In this document: positions 706 through 29,113 of the stretch, in pieces
Layout: each line of letters starts with the position of its first letter
Position numbering within the stretch: the stretch's first letter is position 1
NCBI GenBank assembly: GCA_944372205.1
Contig: CALVYM010000003.1
Span: 1 to 35,374 of the forward strand
DNA length: 35,374 nt
Source of the DNA: an uncultured Bacilli bacterium
GTDB taxonomy: Bacteria; Bacillota_I; Bacilli_A; RF39; UBA660
Direction: 5' to 3'
Program-made: the position numbers and the translations under genes
The notes under the pieces: model-generated
What the model saw: only the letters and a program-made list of their open reading frames with translations
Database searches by the model: none
Told to the model about the DNA's origin: nothing

Positions 706-1323
706 TTATTTTATAATTGATTCTAATAAAGTAATTAATTCATCTTCCTTTATATTAGATGTTTCAATATCAAAATAAATATCATTATATTTAAATGTCA
801 CTATATAAATGGTATTATATTTTGAAATAACTAAATTAGTATTATTTATTATAGAAGGCTTACCATCATCTATAAAATAATCTCTAATTGGGGTATTCGT
901 CTTAGAATAAGCGATAGTTATTCTTCTTTCATCATTAAAGTATTCTATGACATAATTGTTAAATGTACCATCACTTAAGAATATTGCTAAACCATTCATT
1001 TTATTTAGATCGGTAGGAATAACTATATTAAGTAATTCATCATAAATTTCAACCATATAATTATTTTCAACTTTAATATCACTATCTAGAGCAGTTAAAT
1101 TCATATTATCTATTTCATTAATATAAATTTCTTTGGTATCATCAAATATATCTGGTTTATTATTATTAGTTATTAGAAATAAACTAATAATTAATAATAA
1201 ACATATAGGTATTAAGCTATATTTTAAATATTTCATATTTCTTTTATTCATCCTTTCTTTAATTATTTTTAAGTTTTCATCTTTGTTTATATGTTTATTA
1301 AATGATTTATTTATTATATTCAT
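706..1323 (-). CDS. Putative membrane-anchored anti-sigma factor
   Basis: Overlaps the 3' end of the ECF sigma gene. Short cytoplasmic N-terminus, one TM helix (aa ~33-52), extracellular domain ending ...DIETSNIKEDELITLLESII (DUF4367-like). Confidence 0.65.
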   Translation of the reverse strand: MNIINKSFNKHINKDENLKIIKERMNKRNMKYLKYSLIPICLLLIISLFLITNNNKPDIFDDTKEIYINEIDNMNLTALDSDIKVENNYMVEIYDELLNIVIPTDLNKMNGLAIFLSDGTFNNYVIEYFNDERRITIAYSKTNTPIRDYFIDDGKPSIINNTNLVISKYNTIYIVTFKYNDIYFDIETSNIKEDELITLLESIIK

Positions 1324-1828
1324 TTAAAGCCTCCTTTAACTCGGATAGGGTTCTGTATATATAATGTTTAACATTAGATTCTGTAATATTTAATTGTCTT
1401 GCTATTTCTTTTATTGATAGACCTAAATAATAGTATAAGAAAAATACTTTTTGAATTATTTCTTTTTTCTTTAAAAGATACTTCCATATATAATCGATAT
1501 CACTTGTTTTTAAGAAACTTGCTTCAATATCAATATCACTTTTTAAAGTGTCAATTAGTTCCATATTTTCTTTTTTAGAAAATATGGAAACTAAATTTAT
1601 CTTATATTTGAAGCGATAATATTTATTGATTTCATTTTTAGCAATACCAAAAAGATATGCACTAACATTTTCTATGTTATGATTAGCTTTTATTTTTTCA
1701 AATAAAGAAAGATAAATGTTTTGAATTAAATCATTAACATCATCTAAAGATTTAGCATGGATTACTACATACTTTAAAATATCATTATATGTTTCATTAT
1801 ATATTTCTTCTAGAGTTAACTCGTTCAT
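1307..1828 (-). CDS. ECF (sigma-70 group IV) RNA polymerase sigma factor
   Basis: Region 2 (DDVNDLIQNIYL...AYLFGIAKN) and region 4 HTH (LYYYLGLSIKEIARQLNITESNVKHYIYR). Start moved to ATG 1828, which follows SD GGAGGG. Confidence 0.9.
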   Translation of the reverse strand: MNELTLEEIYNETYNDILKYVVIHAKSLDDVNDLIQNIYLSLFEKIKANHNIENVSAYLFGIAKNEINKYYRFKYKINLVSIFSKKENMELIDTLKSDIDIEASFLKTSDIDYIWKYLLKKKEIIQKVFFLYYYLGLSIKEIARQLNITESNVKHYIYRTLSELKEALNEYNK

Positions 1829-1981
1829 CTTTACCCTCCATAATATAAGTTGAAATTTTTGTAAAAAAGTTCCAAAAAAATAAAAAGATTGCAAAATTTA
1901 AAAATTTGTTTTTCTTGTTAATTACCATTCTCTCTTTCTAATTTAATTTACTTAATTCAACTGCAATATTTTTAACTTCTT

Positions 1982-2008
1982 TGTCGAACCATGTCTAGTT
2001 TTGTCGAA
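1982..2008. promoter_or_regulatory. Array of three Spo0A (0A) boxes at 10-bp period
   Basis: TGTCGAA 1982-1988, TGTCTAG 1992-1998 (degenerate), TGTCGAA 2002-2008; 0A consensus is TGNCGAA. Confidence 0.7.
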
Positions 2009-2012
2009 TCGC

Positions 2013-2040
2013 TTGCAATATCAAAAATATCCTTTATAAT
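2013..2040 (+). promoter_or_regulatory. sigmaA promoter of the small-peptide mRNA
   Basis: TTGCAA (2013-2018)-N16-TATAAT (2035-2040). Confidence 0.7.
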
Positions 2041-2140
2041 AGATAACTGTTACCTGTATTGGTGCAGCGCCGACAATTTTCATATCCTCCTCGAGGGGGT
2101 CTAGTGATTCTTAAGAGAGTTTTAGGTATGGAGGTTGCTT

Positions 2141-2230
2141 ATGAGTGAAAAACTATTTTTTCAACTTGTGATAATCATCGTTATTATCATTTTTGGTAGT
2201 AACAATGACAAAGACGCCACTAGAAAGTAG
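2141..2230 (+). CDS. 29-aa hydrophobic peptide, putative type I toxin
   Basis: MSEKLFFQLVIIIVIIIFGSNNDKDATRK*. SD GGAGG at 2130-2134; single hydrophobic stretch plus charged tail; embedded in a highly structured transcript. Confidence 0.65.
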   Translation: MSEKLFFQLVIIIVIIIFGSNNDKDATRK

Positions 2231-2274
2231 CGTCGAAACCCAATTCGGCGTTACCCAATACGGGTAACACTTAT
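2208..2274 (-). ncRNA. Putative cis-antisense antitoxin RNA (~65 nt)
   Basis: Minus-strand promoter TTGCAT (2309-2304)-N17-TATATT (2286-2281) with TG extension. Terminator GACGCTAC-loop-GTGGCGTC-TTTGT at 2234-2208. Overlaps the 3' end of the peptide ORF. Confidence 0.55.
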
Positions 2275-2327
2275 AAATATAATATACCAAAAATTTAATA
2301 ATTATGCAATAAATTTATAAAATAAAT

Positions 2328-3509
2328 TTATAATATATCTTCAAATTGTTTTTCTTCTTCTTTAATTTTTATTACTTGTTTTTTACTTATTGCTTCATTA
2401 ATTAATTCTTCGTATGGTATTAGTTTTTCATATTCTAGACATTTACTAAGTTCTGGATTAATTACTGGATGTTCTGGAACAAATACAGTACAACAATCTT
2501 CATAAGGTAAAGTACTTATATCAAAAGTTTTAATTTTTTTAGCAATATCTATTATTTCTAATTTATCAAAACAAGCAACTGGTCTTATTACAGGCATATC
2601 TACAACATTATTTATAACAGACATACTAGTTAATGTTTGACTAGCTACTTGACCAATAGATTCACCATTTACTATTATTTTAGAGTTTTCACTTTTGGCA
2701 ATCCTCTCAGCAATTCTATACATCATTCTGCGCATTATAGTAATTAAATATTCATAAGGAATATTTCTTAAAATTGCTTCTTGAATTTTAGTAAAATTAA
2801 TAACATATAAAGTCATGTTGGGATTATATTTAGATAGAATGCGAGCAAGTTTAATAACTTTGTTTTTAGCTTCTTCACTTGTGTGTGGTGGTGATTCAAA
2901 ATAAAGAGCAGATAGTTTTACACCACGCTTTATTGTTAAGTAACCTGCAACTGGAGAATCTATTCCTCCGGAGAGCATAAGTAAGCCTTTACCTAAAGTT
3001 CCAACAGGATAACCACCAAGACCTGGGATACCGTTGGTATAATAAAGGATAGCATCTTTTCTAATTTCTATATGAATAGTTATTTCAGGATTATGAACAT
3101 CTACCTTGCATTCTTTATTTTTTAAAATAATTCCTCCGAGTGTTTTACTTACTTCCATACTATCCAATGGATAATCTTTATCACTTCTTTTAGTTTCGAC
3201 TTTAAATGTTTTAAATTCTTGCGTTTTAATTAAATCTAAAACATTTTTAGTAATAGTATTAAAATCTCTATCTTCATCGATAAAACCTATAACTATTTCA
3301 TGAATACCAAAGATATAAGATAAAACATCTATTGTTTTATCTATATTATCTTCACTAACAATAATAAACATTCTTCCTCGGTCATAATTAATTGTATGAT
3401 CCCACATTAAAGAAGAATCAATATTATTCTTGAGTGTCTTTAAAAAGAAATTAATATTAGCTTTTTTAGTAGATAATTCTGCATATTTTAAAATGATTAT
3501 TTTTTCCAT
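2328..3509 (-). CDS. thiI: tRNA 4-thiouridine(8) synthase ThiI
   Basis: THUMP domain, PP-loop LSGGIDSPVA, GESIGQVASQT, EDCC; next to a cysteine desulfurase. Confidence 0.97.
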   Translation of the reverse strand: MEKIIILKYAELSTKKANINFFLKTLKNNIDSSLMWDHTINYDRGRMFIIVSEDNIDKTIDVLSYIFGIHEIVIGFIDEDRDFNTITKNVLDLIKTQEFKTFKVETKRSDKDYPLDSMEVSKTLGGIILKNKECKVDVHNPEITIHIEIRKDAILYYTNGIPGLGGYPVGTLGKGLLMLSGGIDSPVAGYLTIKRGVKLSALYFESPPHTSEEAKNKVIKLARILSKYNPNMTLYVINFTKIQEAILRNIPYEYLITIMRRMMYRIAERIAKSENSKIIVNGESIGQVASQTLTSMSVINNVVDMPVIRPVACFDKLEIIDIAKKIKTFDISTLPYEDCCTVFVPEHPVINPELSKCLEYEKLIPYEELINEAISKKQVIKIKEEEKQFEDIL

Positions 3510-3518
3510 AAATCCCCT

Positions 3519-4646
3519 TTATTTAACTATTTTTAAACTATCATATACTTCACTAAAAATATTTAAAAATTTATTTATTTCATCAGTTGTTGTTGCATAA
3601 GATAAACTTATTCTAAGAGTATGTTTAGCTCTTTTTAAATCATCATAAATAGCCATAATACTATGAGATACTTCACCACTACTACACGCGGTATTTGTAG
3701 ATAAATATACTTCATATTTATCTAGAGCATTAATAAACACTTCTGGCATAATATCCATTATACTAATATTTAATATATGGGGTATTGAATATTTAGTTTT
3801 ATTGATTAAAATGTTGGGATATTTGCTTAGATTATTAACTACTTTTTCATTTAAAAGATTAACAAATCTTTCTTTTTTTTCTAAATCATTTAAAGCTAGT
3901 CTTAAAGCTTTAGATAAAGCTGCAATTAAAGGAAGTGGTGGTGTTCCAGGATTTAGAGCATTAGTTTTACCACTGCCATATAAAATTGGGGCAATATTAA
4001 CCATGCTACTTTTATATAAAAAGCCTATTCCTTTTGGTCCAAATATTTTATGAGCAGACATACTAGCTAGGTCAACATCATGGAAATTAACAGGCACTTT
4101 ACCTATTGCTTGAGTCATATCCGAATGAAGTAATGTTTTAGCATTTTCTTTTTTTATTATTTGTCTAATCATCTTTAGAGGTTGTCTTACTCCTGTTTCA
4201 CTATTAACGGCACAAATGCTTACTAAAATTGTATCTTCTCTTATTTTTCCTTTTAAATCATCAAAATCAATTAATCCTTCAGAATCATTATTAACATAAT
4301 CAATACTAAAGCCAATACTTTTTAAATAATCACAAATAGCATAAATACTTGGATGTTCTAGCTTTGAGACAATTATATGTTTTCCCATTTTGTGATACTT
4401 CATGGCAACACCAATTAAAGCCATATTATTAGCTTCTGTTGCTCCACTAGTATAAGTAATTTCACTTACATTTATATTTAAGATATCCGCAATTTGTTTT
4501 GTAGCACTTTCAAGAAGATTTGCTGATTTTCTTCCTAAAGCATTAATTGAATTAGCATTTCCTACAAATTCTTTGGTAACTTTTGAAATTGTATCAAATA
4601 CTTCATATGATACAGGAGTTGTTGCACTATAATCTAAATAAATCAT
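3519..4646 (-). CDS. iscS: Cysteine desulfurase (IscS/NifZ-like)
   Basis: IYLDYSATTP, TSGATEANN, PLP lysine motif SAHKIFGPKG, catalytic Cys in TACSS. Confidence 0.95.
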   Translation of the reverse strand: MIYLDYSATTPVSYEVFDTISKVTKEFVGNANSINALGRKSANLLESATKQIADILNINVSEITYTSGATEANNMALIGVAMKYHKMGKHIIVSKLEHPSIYAICDYLKSIGFSIDYVNNDSEGLIDFDDLKGKIREDTILVSICAVNSETGVRQPLKMIRQIIKKENAKTLLHSDMTQAIGKVPVNFHDVDLASMSAHKIFGPKGIGFLYKSSMVNIAPILYGSGKTNALNPGTPPLPLIAALSKALRLALNDLEKKERFVNLLNEKVVNNLSKYPNILINKTKYSIPHILNISIMDIMPEVFINALDKYEVYLSTNTACSSGEVSHSIMAIYDDLKRAKHTLRISLSYATTTDEINKFLNIFSEVYDSLKIVK

Positions 4647-5074
4647 TGATTAGCCTCCGCATTAGCAACATCAACTGAATCTTCACAAGTATTACCTGTT
4701 GGACTTAATAAACATTCTTCACAAGTAGCTATTTCACTCATTATATCTCCCGTAAAATTGGAAATAAATCCAAATACTAAATCAACTATTGTAGGTATAA
4801 AAAATATAACAACTCCAATTATAAGTCTTTTAAATAGTCCTTTTGCAGCTGATGATATTGCTTTATCATCACTTGATACTACTGCAGTTGCAAAATCAAT
4901 AACTCCTAGAACTATTATAATTAAAGGAATAACTATTTTTAAAGCTACTAAGAAATAACCAACAAACTGCCATATTGGAGCAGTTCTTCCACAAAAATTT
5001 AACTCAGCTGCAGATACATTAAGTGGTAAAAATAATATAACTAACAATATAAAACTAATAACTTTTAACTTCAT
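4643..5074 (-). CDS. Signal peptide + two-TM protein, TrbC/VirB2-like pilin architecture
   Basis: Signal peptide ending VSA, two hydrophobic helices separated by the short loop SSDDKAISSAAKGLFKR, four Cys; ATGA-coupled to iscS. Confidence 0.5.
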   Translation of the reverse strand: MKLKVISFILLVILFLPLNVSAAELNFCGRTAPIWQFVGYFLVALKIVIPLIIIVLGVIDFATAVVSSDDKAISSAAKGLFKRLIIGVVIFFIPTIVDLVFGFISNFTGDIMSEIATCEECLLSPTGNTCEDSVDVANAEANQ

Positions 5075-5083
5075 AATTCCTCC

Positions 5084-6799
5084 TTACTTGTATTCTTCAA
5101 GTAATCTTTTATATATTCCTGGTTCAACAATATTTATAGCATTAATAGCATTTTCTAAACTACTTTTAAAGTTACCTTTTAAGAAGTTATTTTCTGCTTT
5201 AATTAAATTAAAATCAACTTCTTTATTAGTAACACGATATCTATTGCCATAAACAATTGCCACCTCTGCCATCTTAGCTGTTTTAACTGTTTCATTTATA
5301 GTATTATAAACTTTTAAAACTAAATCTCTTGCAGTATCAACCCGAACATTTAATATTTTAATCGAAATTGGTCTTTTGTCAAGAGCTTTTATAAGTTCAT
5401 TAATCGCCGCCATGGCTTCAGATAATTCTACATAATAGTTTTTAGGAACATTTGGGAGTTTAAATGAACGAACCTTTTCTTTAGTTTGATTTAGAATTTT
5501 TTTGATTTCATCAAGTTGTTCTCTGGCCCTTAGTTCATCTTCTTTTAGGCTACCTAAACTTTTAAGTGCTCCATTTAATTTTTCTTCAGTTTTAACTAGT
5601 TTTGAATTAATCATTTCCATTTCTCTGGCAAGCTTACTAAATGGCATAATTTTACTTCTAGCAACATCTACTATTTTATCATAACTAGCTCTTATATTCA
5701 TTATTTCATCTTTAATTTCTGCAATTACAGAAACTTCATCATCTGTTAAATCATAACTATATTTAATATCATCAATCTTTTTATATAATTCATTATTAAT
5801 TTTTTCTAATTTAGTAGCTTTAATTAAGATACTTCTACTATAATCTTCATAAATCTTCTTACTTACTTTTTCTTTATCAAAATCATTATATAATGAATCA
5901 AAATAATCATGCATAGTCTTAAGTTCAAATAAAGAATCTTCAATATTAAGTACATTTAATCTTTGAAATATATCTAATATCTTTTTATTTGCCTCTTCTA
6001 TATTATAATCAATATTTAAATATTCTAAGTTATAGCCATCTTTCATCATTTTACTAGCAATATTTTTAATATCATCAATTTTTTTAGGTATTAGATTTTT
6101 ACCTAAATTAACTATTGGTCTAGTTTCTTCAATAACAGCTTTTAAATTATCAATTATATCTGATATAGCTTTAACTATTTTACCTACTTCAGTATAAGCA
6201 TTTTTTTCCATTGATGATTCAAATGCTTGAAATAACTTATCAACATTTTCAAATTGTAATTCTAAAGGAACTTTAATTATACTATATTCTTCTTCATAAT
6301 CTTTATAAGTATTATAAATATCTCGATATGTTGCTTTTAATTTAGTAATAGTTTCTCTATTTCGTTCTTCACTTAAAGTTACATCTTTGATTTCATCAAG
6401 TAAAAATCCTGCTTTAGTTTTTAAATTGTTCAGTTCAAAATCAACTTGTAACATTAAATTTTTCAAACTTTTATAATCTTTATCTTCAAATAATTCTTCT
6501 ATTTCATTAATTGTATCAGTAACTTTAGGTAATGCTACATCTTTTATTTCATTAAATCTTTTCTTCCAATTTTCTAATTTTTCTTTTAATTCATCATTAT
6601 TAACTAAAGCTTCAACTTTATTAAGTTCCGATAGCATACTTGCAGAAATTATTAAGTTCTTTTCTTTTTCAAGTTCATCTATTTCTTTTTTTAATTTATT
6701 TCTTTGTTTTTTACTTATTAAAGATAAAACAATTATAACCATAATTATTGTTAATATATAATAAGCAACTGCAATTAATAAAAAAGTTGTCCTTCCCAT
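5084..6799 (-). CDS. ezrA: Septation ring formation regulator EzrA
   Basis: N-terminal TM, long helical repeats, C-terminal YGNRYR patch, 571 aa, ezrA-iscS-thiI synteny. Confidence 0.92.
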   Translation of the reverse strand: MGRTTFLLIAVAYYILTIIMVIIVLSLISKKQRNKLKKEIDELEKEKNLIISASMLSELNKVEALVNNDELKEKLENWKKRFNEIKDVALPKVTDTINEIEELFEDKDYKSLKNLMLQVDFELNNLKTKAGFLLDEIKDVTLSEERNRETITKLKATYRDIYNTYKDYEEEYSIIKVPLELQFENVDKLFQAFESSMEKNAYTEVGKIVKAISDIIDNLKAVIEETRPIVNLGKNLIPKKIDDIKNIASKMMKDGYNLEYLNIDYNIEEANKKILDIFQRLNVLNIEDSLFELKTMHDYFDSLYNDFDKEKVSKKIYEDYSRSILIKATKLEKINNELYKKIDDIKYSYDLTDDEVSVIAEIKDEIMNIRASYDKIVDVARSKIMPFSKLAREMEMINSKLVKTEEKLNGALKSLGSLKEDELRAREQLDEIKKILNQTKEKVRSFKLPNVPKNYYVELSEAMAAINELIKALDKRPISIKILNVRVDTARDLVLKVYNTINETVKTAKMAEVAIVYGNRYRVTNKEVDFNLIKAENNFLKGNFKSSLENAINAINIVEPGIYKRLLEEYK

Positions 6800-9101: not shown

Positions 9102-9178
9102 TGGTGTCCTCGAAGCGATTCGAACGCTTGACCGTACGCTTAGAAGGCGTATGCTCTATCCAGCTGAGCTACGAGGAC
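9102..9178 (-). tRNA. tRNA-Arg(TCT)
   Basis: GTCCTCG acceptor stem, anticodon arm TACGC-CT-TCT-AA-GCGTA, GTTCGAAT T-loop, encoded CCA. Promoter TTGCAT-N17-TATAAT at 9219-9191. Confidence 0.97.
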
Positions 9179-12421: not shown

Positions 12422-12465
12422 ATAATAACACACTCATTTTAAAAATTTTGTCGAACAATGTCGAA
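12422..12465 (-). promoter_or_regulatory. Spo0A-activated-type promoter of rpn
   Basis: Minus strand TTCGACA-ttg-TTCGACA (two perfect 0A boxes, 12465-12449) upstream of GTGTGTTATTAT extended -10. Confidence 0.65.
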
Positions 12466-12487
12466 AGATTTAAAAAAATTGCAATTT

Positions 12488-28946: not shown

Positions 28947-29023
28947 TGGTCGAGAAGACAGGATTTGAACCTGCAACCCCTACATCCCAAATGTAGTGCA
29001 CTACCAAATTGTGCTACTTCTCG
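28947..29023 (-). tRNA. tRNA-Pro(TGG)
   Basis: CGAGAAG acceptor stem, CTACA-TT-TGG-GA-TGTAG anticodon arm, GGTTCAAATCC, encoded CCA. Confidence 0.97.
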
Positions 29024-29036
29024 TTATCTTAAAAAA

Positions 29037-29113
29037 TGGTACGCCCAAAGGGATTCGAACCCCCAACCTCTAGATCCGTAGTCTAGCGCTCTATCCAGTT
29101 GAGCTATGGGCGC
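29037..29113 (-). tRNA. tRNA-Arg(ACG)
   Basis: GCGCCCA acceptor stem, CTAGA-CT-ACG-GA-TCTAG anticodon arm, GGTTCGAATCC, encoded CCA. Promoter TTGCAT-N17-TATAAT at 29163-29135. Confidence 0.97.

Follow-up and report, generated by a model that had tools for sequence, protein, structure and literature searches.

A multicopy locus resembling a type I toxin-antitoxin module in an uncultured Bacilli bacterium

The DNA analysed here (the window; all 35,374 nucleotides of contig CALVYM010000003.1, assembly GCA_944372205.1, from an uncultured Bacilli bacterium) carries a short locus in which a small peptide gene faces a predicted convergent antisense RNA gene. The window is AT-rich, with about 20-30% G+C per 200 nt and a local rise to 32-35% over positions 1901-2300. 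An original prediction, made from the letters alone, had described positions 2013-2309 as a type I toxin-antitoxin-like locus with a plus-strand promoter, two complementary arms, an anti-Shine-Dalgarno (anti-SD) stretch, a 29-aa hydrophobic peptide, an alternative 3′ hairpin, and a convergent promoter and terminator for an antisense RNA of about 65 nt. All these features are present where they had been placed and are conserved in 52 distinct copies of the locus; the fact that each element of the layout is kept across these copies supports the reading. The features of the window copy are listed below (SD, Shine-Dalgarno; ORF, open reading frame; MFE, minimum free energy structure).

1982-2008, plus strand: three direct heptads with 10-bp spacing just 5′ of the -35 region, TGTCGAA (1982-1988), TGTCTAG (1992-1998) and TGTCGAA (2002-2008)
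2013-2040, plus strand: sigma-70-type promoter of the peptide mRNA, -35 TTGCAA (2013-2018), 16-nt spacer, -10 TATAAT (2035-2040)
2047-2270, plus strand: minimal structured peptide (toxin-like) mRNA, according to the MFE and a covariance model
2048-2073, plus strand: 5′ arm of the closing helix (2048-2062 and 2068-2073)
2075-2090, plus strand: anti-SD region UUUUCAUAUCCUCC, paired with the SD region in the MFE
2086-2090 and 2095-2099, plus strand: CCTCC and GGGGG, respectively
2130-2134, plus strand: SD sequence GGAGG, 6 nt 5′ of the ATG
2141-2230, plus strand: ORF of the 29-aa hydrophobic peptide MSEKLFFQLVIIIVIIIFGSNNDKDATRK, ATG at 2141, stop codon at 2228-2230
2245-2269, plus strand: 3′ arm of the closing helix (2245-2250 and 2255-2269), for which an alternative local hairpin is possible
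2250-2268, plus strand: this local 3′ hairpin, GTTACCC (2250-2256) / GGGTAAC (2262-2268)
2281-2309, minus strand: promoter of the antisense RNA, -35 TTGCAT (2309-2304), 17-nt spacer, extended -10 TG(G)TATATT (2289-2281) with TG at 2289-2288 and TATATT at 2286-2281
2203-2274, minus strand: predicted cis-antisense (antitoxin-like) RNA of about 65-72 nt, consisting of a 5′ hairpin and a terminator hairpin
2213-2234, minus strand: terminator hairpin over the stop codon, stem 2234-2213, tail TTTGTCATTG
2212-2203, minus strand: tail following the antisense terminator stem, UUUGUCAUUG

Copies of the locus were collected by pattern-anchored extraction from the window's own genome and from fetched loci. 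This yielded 67 unique stretches, 56 of which were 270-380 nt long. Two of these, from contigs C60 and C68 of the own genome, were false positives and were left out; the others gave 52 distinct transcripts, which were aligned (alignment A1) and used to build a covariance model (R1). The extraction demanded a promoter-like match and the GTTAC/GGTAAC motifs of the arms, so that these features are present by construction while the others are not.

The plus strand of positions 2045-2272 folds with an MFE of -90.3 kcal/mol compared to -50.1 ± 4.5 kcal/mol in shuffled sequences (z -8.9; none of 200 shuffles as good), whereas the minus strand of the same stretch reaches only -70.2 kcal/mol. Folding of 2047-2270 had been proposed as a check, and the RNA is thus far more stable than its shuffles. 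The window copy scored 196.5 bits with model R1. From the 52-copy alignment, RNAalifold predicted two elements, the helix closing the transcript end to end, referred to here as the clamp, and a hairpin over the stop codon. The closing helix (14 pairs) is paired in 94.1% of cases over the 52 copies, with five of the 14 pairs changed on both sides, and together with the five pairs of the stop-codon hairpin 94.7% of cells are paired and eight pairs are changed on both sides. Alignment columns 14/284, for instance, hold U-A in 27 copies and G-C in 21, and columns 9/289 hold C-G in 23, U-G in 15 and U-A in 10. The covariation score of 0.250 was not attained by any of 500 shuffles (0.147 ± 0.008), and sliding the helix to other registers left only 28-46% of positions paired. 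Moreover, the two ends were joined in the MFE of all 52 copies, with a median of 22 pairs in the closing helix, and the plus strand was the more stable one in 51 of 52. G:U pairs account for 114 of the 1125 helix pairs and are spread over 45 copies. In DNA, or in RNA of the other strand, each of them would turn into an A-C mismatch, so the folded molecule is the plus-strand RNA. The compensatory changes and the G:U pairs hence bear out the predicted pairing of the arms on this strand. The local hairpin GTTACCC/GGGTAAC at the 3′ end is less well kept, with 76.9% paired in that alignment register.

In the MFE of the window copy the SD sequence lies in a 13-bp helix (about 2075-2087 / 2125-2137), where its main partner is UUUUC (2077-2081), and its unpaired probability is 0.00. 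The anti-SD motif CCTCC, for which pairing either with the SD sequence or with the nearby GGGGG had been proposed, is present and the SD sequence is indeed paired locally, but not squarely with CCUCC. At least four of the five SD nucleotides are paired in the MFE of 36 of 48 copies, a moderate excess over what is expected in an RNA that is 65% paired, and the median unpaired probability of the SD sequence is 0.19 compared to 0.35 over all positions. When the last 68 nt were forced to be single-stranded or the 3′ arm was deleted in silico, the SD sequence opened (gain above 0.2) in none of the 48 copies. The SD sequence is thus occluded by local pairing that does not depend on the clamp. Activation by 3′ processing in the manner of hok and aapA1 found no support in this test; the clamp does not appear to control translation as in those mRNAs, and the role given to it below is a conjectural one.

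An open frame of 21-39 codons is found at the same place in 51 of the 52 distinct copies, so that the predicted 29-aa peptide belongs to a conserved ORF. One of the 51 (L054:372-575) is open only by way of an alternative GTG following a 1-nt insertion. The peptides align as M-[NSK]-[ED]-x-x-[FY]-x-[QL]-[VL]-x-I-I-..., are rich in isoleucine, leucine and valine in the core and continue into a short charged tail or stop immediately; the window peptide consists of a single hydrophobic helix and a short charged tail. Length differences correspond to whole codons in the peptide alignment. Nucleotide diversity at the three codon positions is 0.465, 0.299 and 0.485, the second position being the least variable. 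With a reading frame that was picked as open, T occupies the second position of 70% of the core codons as against 42% and 19% in the other frames, and the other five frames are free of stop codons in only 0-8 of 45 ORFs. The peptide sequence itself drifts freely while its hydrophobicity is retained. Two nonsense copies were encountered, one with a stop at codon 5 (L031) and one from the own genome with a stop at codon 8 (contig C43). Both retain the RNA features, which is the pattern expected for a harmful ORF.

A variant peptide, MIRILKSYIMIIINIKIKFSINKKDATRK, carries polar residues in its core and is kept in the loci L040, L042, L048, L089, L034 and L035; a polar core is odd for a membrane toxin. 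One of these loci (L042) lies on a public contig of a metagenome-assembled genome from another species, and its upstream flank is identical to the flank at window positions 1944-2018 at 74 of 76 bases. The orthologous site there holds a variant ORF of the same length with a polar core, MIRILKSYIMIIINIKIKFSINKKDATKK, which suggests an exchange between paralogues or fast divergence.

On the minus strand, a promoter of the form TTGnnn, 17 nt ending in TGn, and TATATT is present in 48 of the 52 copies, and the spacer always measures 17 nt. Of the four remaining copies, one is truncated where its locus ends, and three, inspected by eye, combine TTGTAA or TTGTAT with TATAAT or TATATT at 17 nt and do not have the TG. 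The stop-codon hairpin is paired to 96.5%, with compensatory changes in three of its five pairs. It is preceded on the plus strand by a nearly invariant A-run, which becomes a U-tract when read on the minus strand. Since no such tract follows the hairpin on the plus strand, it should act as a terminator for the minus strand only. Two terminator-like sites were found where 0.1 were expected. Promoter and terminator occur together on the minus strand in 50 of 51 copies and define an RNA with a modal length of 64-65 nt, so that the sequence elements of the proposed antisense gene of about 65 nt are well borne out. In the window, the predicted RNA (from about 2274 to about 2203, 72 nt) folds at -29.0 kcal/mol (z -5.4). 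Its full complementarity to the peptide mRNA extends over the last seven to eight codons (22-29), the stop codon and all of the 3′ arm. Contigs from four runs labelled as metagenomic RNA-Seq came mostly from related copies and are probably DNA, so they carry no information on transcripts, their ends or their strand. The A-run and the stem bases that open this terminator also code for part of the conserved peptide tail (K-K-D-A), a part that may thus be shaped by the RNA.

The predicted plus-strand promoter is likewise kept across the copies. Its -35 region reads TTGCAA in 36 of 52, in a collection whose extraction itself demanded a promoter-like match, and the peptide mRNA presumably starts at about 2046-2048. 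Promoter-like sites as such are not beyond chance in this one AT-rich sequence (6 compared to 3.8 ± 2.0 expected). The case for both promoters therefore rests on their conservation.

The search for paralogues and covariation in related genomes, also proposed with the original prediction, found both. The own genome (a 1.23-Mb assembly of 145 contigs, 91% complete) holds at least eight related loci. A blastn search revealed a full-length paralogue on contig C2 (80% identity) and split matches on C16, C6, C7 and C90, all with the same architecture. Model R1 recognized five full copies, a sixth truncated by the start of a contig and two that are partial, and C43 (two copies) and the end of C100 carry further promoter-bearing or decayed ones. 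In the neighbourhood of the window copy (window 1307-6799) are the genes of a divergent ECF-type sigma factor and a convergent ThiI; besides these two, the own-genome copies are flanked by genes for a P-type ATPase, MiaA, a UvrD-type helicase, a penicillin-binding protein and an HD hydrolase. These neighbours are housekeeping in kind, and no mobile-element context was seen around the own-genome copies. Within the genus, 18 of 36 other genomes were matched by blastn and 34 of 40 by R1 at E <= 1e-5, with 1-12 matches each and some copies in tandem arrays about 370 nt apart. An exact scan for the 3′ motif in one genome per bacterial or archaeal species returned 55 stretches, all from metagenome bins titled uncultured Bacilli, uncultured Tenericutes, uncultured bacterium or Candidatus Onthocola, the last of which NCBI places in Bacilli incertae sedis.

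A blastn search of 120 other genera of the family (one genome each) gave a single match of 30 nt (E 5.4e-6), which we took as noise, and the more sensitive R1 matched in three of 40. The GTTACC arms are unchanged in one of these genera (G083). G073 and G090 have arms of entirely different sequence that are nonetheless complementary to each other, and they retain a hydrophobic ORF of 21-25 aa with an SD sequence as well as a hairpin preceded by an A-run. This is the strongest sign that selection acts on the architecture and not on the sequence.

The same data speak to the idea that the element is a repeated non-coding structured RNA, or a repeat in the manner of miniature inverted-repeat transposable elements, in which inverted repeats mimic a helix and the ORF is incidental. 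Dispersal over many intergenic sites, arms that form inverted repeats, and a conservation that is highest at the level of RNA or DNA rather than of the peptide would all fit such a repeat. Its DNA arms would, however, carry A-C mismatches wherever a G:U pair occurs, and a transposase-binding site would keep its sequence, whereas these arms covary and are wholly replaced in other genera. Furthermore, conservation reaches past the arms to both promoters, collections of plasmid and phage DNA contained no similar DNA, and the codon-wise behaviour of the ORF described above argues against an incidental frame. We regard this explanation as very improbable.

Known families offered no match. At gathering thresholds, Rfam found three tRNAs in the whole window and nothing else, and a permissive scan of positions 1850-2400 gave one chance-level match (narK, 15.8 bits compared to a threshold of 43.2, E 1.7). 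A match to a housekeeping RNA such as 6S, named beforehand as the outcome that would speak against the prediction, was thus not obtained. A housekeeping or regulatory RNA (6S-like, a riboswitch or a leader) in a lineage too divergent for the Rfam models might nevertheless look similar, with about 225 nt closed into a long helix, internal loops and a strong-looking promoter. Such RNAs are single-copy, in contrast to the at least eight loci of this genome, and neither a conserved, translated-looking ORF nor a convergent small RNA gene would be expected of them. Together with the empty Rfam searches this makes a missed housekeeping RNA hardly credible.

With 40 distinct peptides as queries, no Pfam family recurred at E <= 10, and at this threshold neither these peptides nor a set of six matched a toxin family of Pfam or NCBIfam. 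The peptide profile had chance matches only in the PDB, and matches to PHROGs were at chance level. Exact look-up of four peptide versions in a collection of 15 billion proteins found none of them, which indicates that current annotation misses these peptides. A full-text literature search for type I toxin-antitoxin loci in these bacteria (Tenericutes, Onthocola) found no description. A recurrent signal came from the NCBIfam model small_MgtU (NF040924), which 14 of the 40 peptides matched weakly at E <= 1 with 13-19 bits (best 19.1 bits, E 0.0007), far under the cut-off of 33; these matches span only about 15 hydrophobic residues. Judged by Rfam, Pfam, NCBIfam, PHROGs and the PDB, both the RNA and the peptide are outside known families, in line with the earlier failure to assign the peptide to one.

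The small_MgtU matches raise the question whether the peptide could be a small membrane protein that is not toxic, for instance one that regulates or stabilises a transporter as MgtU, MgtS or AcrZ do, with a cis-antisense RNA that tunes its gene; the architecture described here would be real in that case too. MgtU (28 aa) is similar in length and in its hydrophobic stretch, and conservation of the polar-core variant peptide would also suit such a protein. The MgtU gene of enterobacteria is single-copy and linked to a magnesium transporter, and we know of no antisense or clamp architecture associated with it. The loci studied here, by comparison, number up to 12 per genome of about 1.2 Mb, are partly in tandem and adjoin unrelated housekeeping genes instead of a partner transporter. 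A peptide sequence that drifts while hydrophobicity stays, and the occurrence of nonsense copies, likewise count against a non-toxic protein. Layered repression by a clamp, an occluded SD sequence and an antisense RNA is typical of toxin mRNAs such as hok, aapA1, bsrG and fst, and the layers found here resemble it. We therefore consider a non-toxic membrane protein unlikely, though less so than a transposable repeat or a housekeeping RNA.

Four traits taken together make it likely that the locus belongs to a type I toxin-antitoxin-like module that is lineage-specific and present in many copies: a structured mRNA whose ends pair, an occluded SD sequence, a short ORF for a hydrophobic peptide, and a predicted convergent cis-antisense RNA that has a promoter and a terminator to itself. 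This reading is based on the sequence elements, their conservation and their covariation. On these grounds the module is a new lineage-restricted family, with a layout nearest to txpA/RatA and bsrG/SR4 plus an end-to-end clamp like that of hok and aapA1. Several observations weigh against a toxin module. The terminator scan found no plus-strand terminator 3′ of the 3′ arm, and the hosts are known solely as metagenome-assembled genomes. The modest excess of SD pairing, the failure of 3′-arm removal to open the SD sequence, the conserved polar-core variant and the weak small_MgtU matches are further points of this kind.

A possible mechanism follows from this arrangement. The sigma-70-type promoter would produce an mRNA of about 225 nt that starts exactly at the first base of the approximately 22-bp helix between the 5′ and 3′ ends, and the local anti-SD stretch would hold the ribosome-binding site mostly paired. 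The clamp would protect both mRNA ends, and clamp and occluded SD sequence together would render the mRNA stable and poorly translated. The convergent promoter and the stop-codon terminator would give rise to an antisense RNA of 65-72 nt. Its 5′ part is nearly identical to the 5′ arm of the mRNA and would compete with it in pairing to the 3′ arm, so that the clamp would open and a duplex of about 70 bp would result. Cleavage of the duplex by RNase III, the gene of which is present in the own genome, would then lead to degradation of the mRNA. When the antisense RNA is scarce, the peptide would be made and insert into the membrane; we infer that it is a membrane-active toxin produced under this condition. 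The layout matches the Gram-positive class for which a passage of PMC8594479 describes an antisense RNA on the 3′ side whose overlap takes in both the ORF and the 3′ end of the mRNA. Antitoxins of this class in B. subtilis are described in a passage of PMC6562991 as binding the mRNA 3′ end and promoting decay, usually with RNase III acting first.

The closest parallels in B. subtilis are txpA/RatA, bsrG/SR4, bsrE/SR5 and bsrH/as-bsrH, in which the genes are convergent and the antitoxin overlaps both the mRNA 3′ end and the ORF. In the relevant passages of PMC6562991 and PMC8594479, the toxins are short and hydrophobic (29-59 aa; BsrH 29 aa, BsrE 30 aa) and the SD sequence of bsrG is partly sequestered, as here. 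Degradation via RNase III, a route that is only proposed for the present locus, is also part of the account in PMC6562991, as are antitoxins of 100-222 nt, compared to the predicted 65-72 nt here. In contrast to these systems, the mRNA ends of the present locus are joined by a helix of about 22 bp, the 3′ strand of which is targeted by the antisense RNA. Moreover, the loci are chromosomal, lie beside housekeeping genes and occur many times per genome, whereas those of B. subtilis reside on prophage-like elements. No sequence kinship of the peptides (Pfam, NCBIfam, PDB) or of the antitoxin RNA (Rfam) was detected.

Full-length mRNAs of hok (fbi) and aapA1 show long-distance pairing of the 5′ and 3′ ends, occlusion by an anti-SD sequence and alternative local hairpins. 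The present RNA resembles those of hok/Sok (plasmid R1) and aapA1/IsoA1 (Helicobacter pylori) in its 5′-3′ closing, in the occlusion of the SD sequence by an anti-SD region and in the possible alternative hairpin. The antisense RNAs of hok and aapA1 bind their mRNAs at the 5′ or translation-initiation region, and translation there is activated by 3′ trimming. The antisense RNA of the present locus would instead bind at the 3′ end, and in silico the SD sequence stays shut when the 3′ arm is taken away. The locus is devoid of a leader ORF like mok of hok, and the Hok and AapA1 peptides are unrelated (no Pfam match) and stem from Gram-negative hosts.

With fst/RNAII (par of pAD1) and SprA1/PepA1 the locus shares convergent transcription, a 5′ structure that would limit translation, and a peptide that is comparable in size and likewise combines a hydrophobic stretch with a charged tail at the C-terminus. 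A conserved proline is the motif of the Fst peptides. As noted in the original prediction, this proline is absent from the window peptide, and it is absent throughout the peptide alignment. The Fst-type toxin profile of Pfam was not matched by any of the 40 peptides, and no relative was found in the PDB. According to a passage of PMC8594479, the overlap in Fst/RNAII and SprA1 excludes the ORF and the interaction occurs outside of it, unlike the present overlap, which takes in the last codons and the 3′ arm. The likeness to hok/sok, fst/RNAII, aapA/isoA and txpA/ratA that had been proposed for the locus thus stands for the general layout and for the 3′ overlap of txpA/RatA, while the locus is a member of none of these families.

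Type I toxin-antitoxin systems have been reported from few phyla only, as stated in a passage of PMC12390103. The family described here comprises dozens of paralogues in which the clamp between the two mRNA ends covaries fully, and they come from bacteria that are known only as metagenome bins and have genomes of about 1.2 Mb. The aligned copies would constitute a data set on the silencing of toxin mRNAs and on the action of a very short, clamp-targeting antisense RNA. Eight to 12 loci are an unexpected load for genomes this small, which bears on the purpose of chromosomal type I systems.

The direct heptads upstream of the peptide promoter are possibly a regulator-binding site. TGTCGA occurs one to three times within the 70 nt 5′ of the -35 region in 48 of the 52 copies. 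Direct repeats of TGTCGAA (heptad, N3, heptad) are also found at window positions 12448-12475 and on contigs C2, C4, C9, C12, C43, C45, C52, C55, C65, C86, C100 and C133 of the own genome. A second TGTCGA no more than 30 nt away was counted in 29 cases in the 1.23-Mb genome, compared to about 0.5 expected by arithmetic from base composition; the single heptad TGTCGAA is not enriched genome-wide (108 compared to 105 expected). The repeats precede the toxin-like loci as well as copper-ATPase-like, cold-shock protein, SDR and other genes, and also an hsp20-adjacent locus. Their layout resembles that of a CtsR operator. CtsR was dropped as a candidate regulator, as no CtsR domain was found in the 91%-complete genome. 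In its widest form, the interpretation would be a previously undescribed type I superfamily across a whole family of reduced-genome uncultured gut Bacilli, with about one locus per 100-150 kb, an antitoxin that mimics the mRNA 5′ end and displaces the clamp, thereby laying both ends of the mRNA open to decay, and a promoter wired to a stress regulon via the TGTCGAA repeats. We hold this as a tentative proposal that is possible but doubtful.

Two small loci of the own genome (C12:4709-4940 and C55:2040-2260; L094 and L095) share the module of repeats and TTGCAA promoter. Their RNAs have complementary ends, GAAAGCGGG...CCCGCTTTC and GGAAGTGGGTT...AACCCACTTTC, respectively. Neither contains a hydrophobic ORF or has an Rfam match, and the two may represent another small RNA family. 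On C55, at about 2240-2290, the inverted repeat TTAGCACTTTAACTTGACAAGTGCTAA was read by eye 5′ of an Hsp20-type gene; it resembles a CIRCE (HrcA) operator. Contig C43 carries a decayed or derived copy (L096 1060-940, minus strand) in which the promoter module and the clamp GTTACCCC...GGGGTAAC are kept and the interior is replaced; a separate terminator hairpin follows, 5′ of a zinc-ribbon membrane protein gene. The partial R1 match at C26:4918-5000 has a T-box leader (121.7 bits; C26, L097 8-191, minus strand) next to it.

Two more ORFs in the region 1307-6799 of the window were named by eye from their translations; one is cysteine-desulfurase-like, and the other, a long one with coiled coils, resembles EzrA. 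The three tRNA genes, which were the sole Rfam matches at gathering thresholds in the window, lie on the minus strand at 9105-9178, 28950-29023 and 29040-29113.

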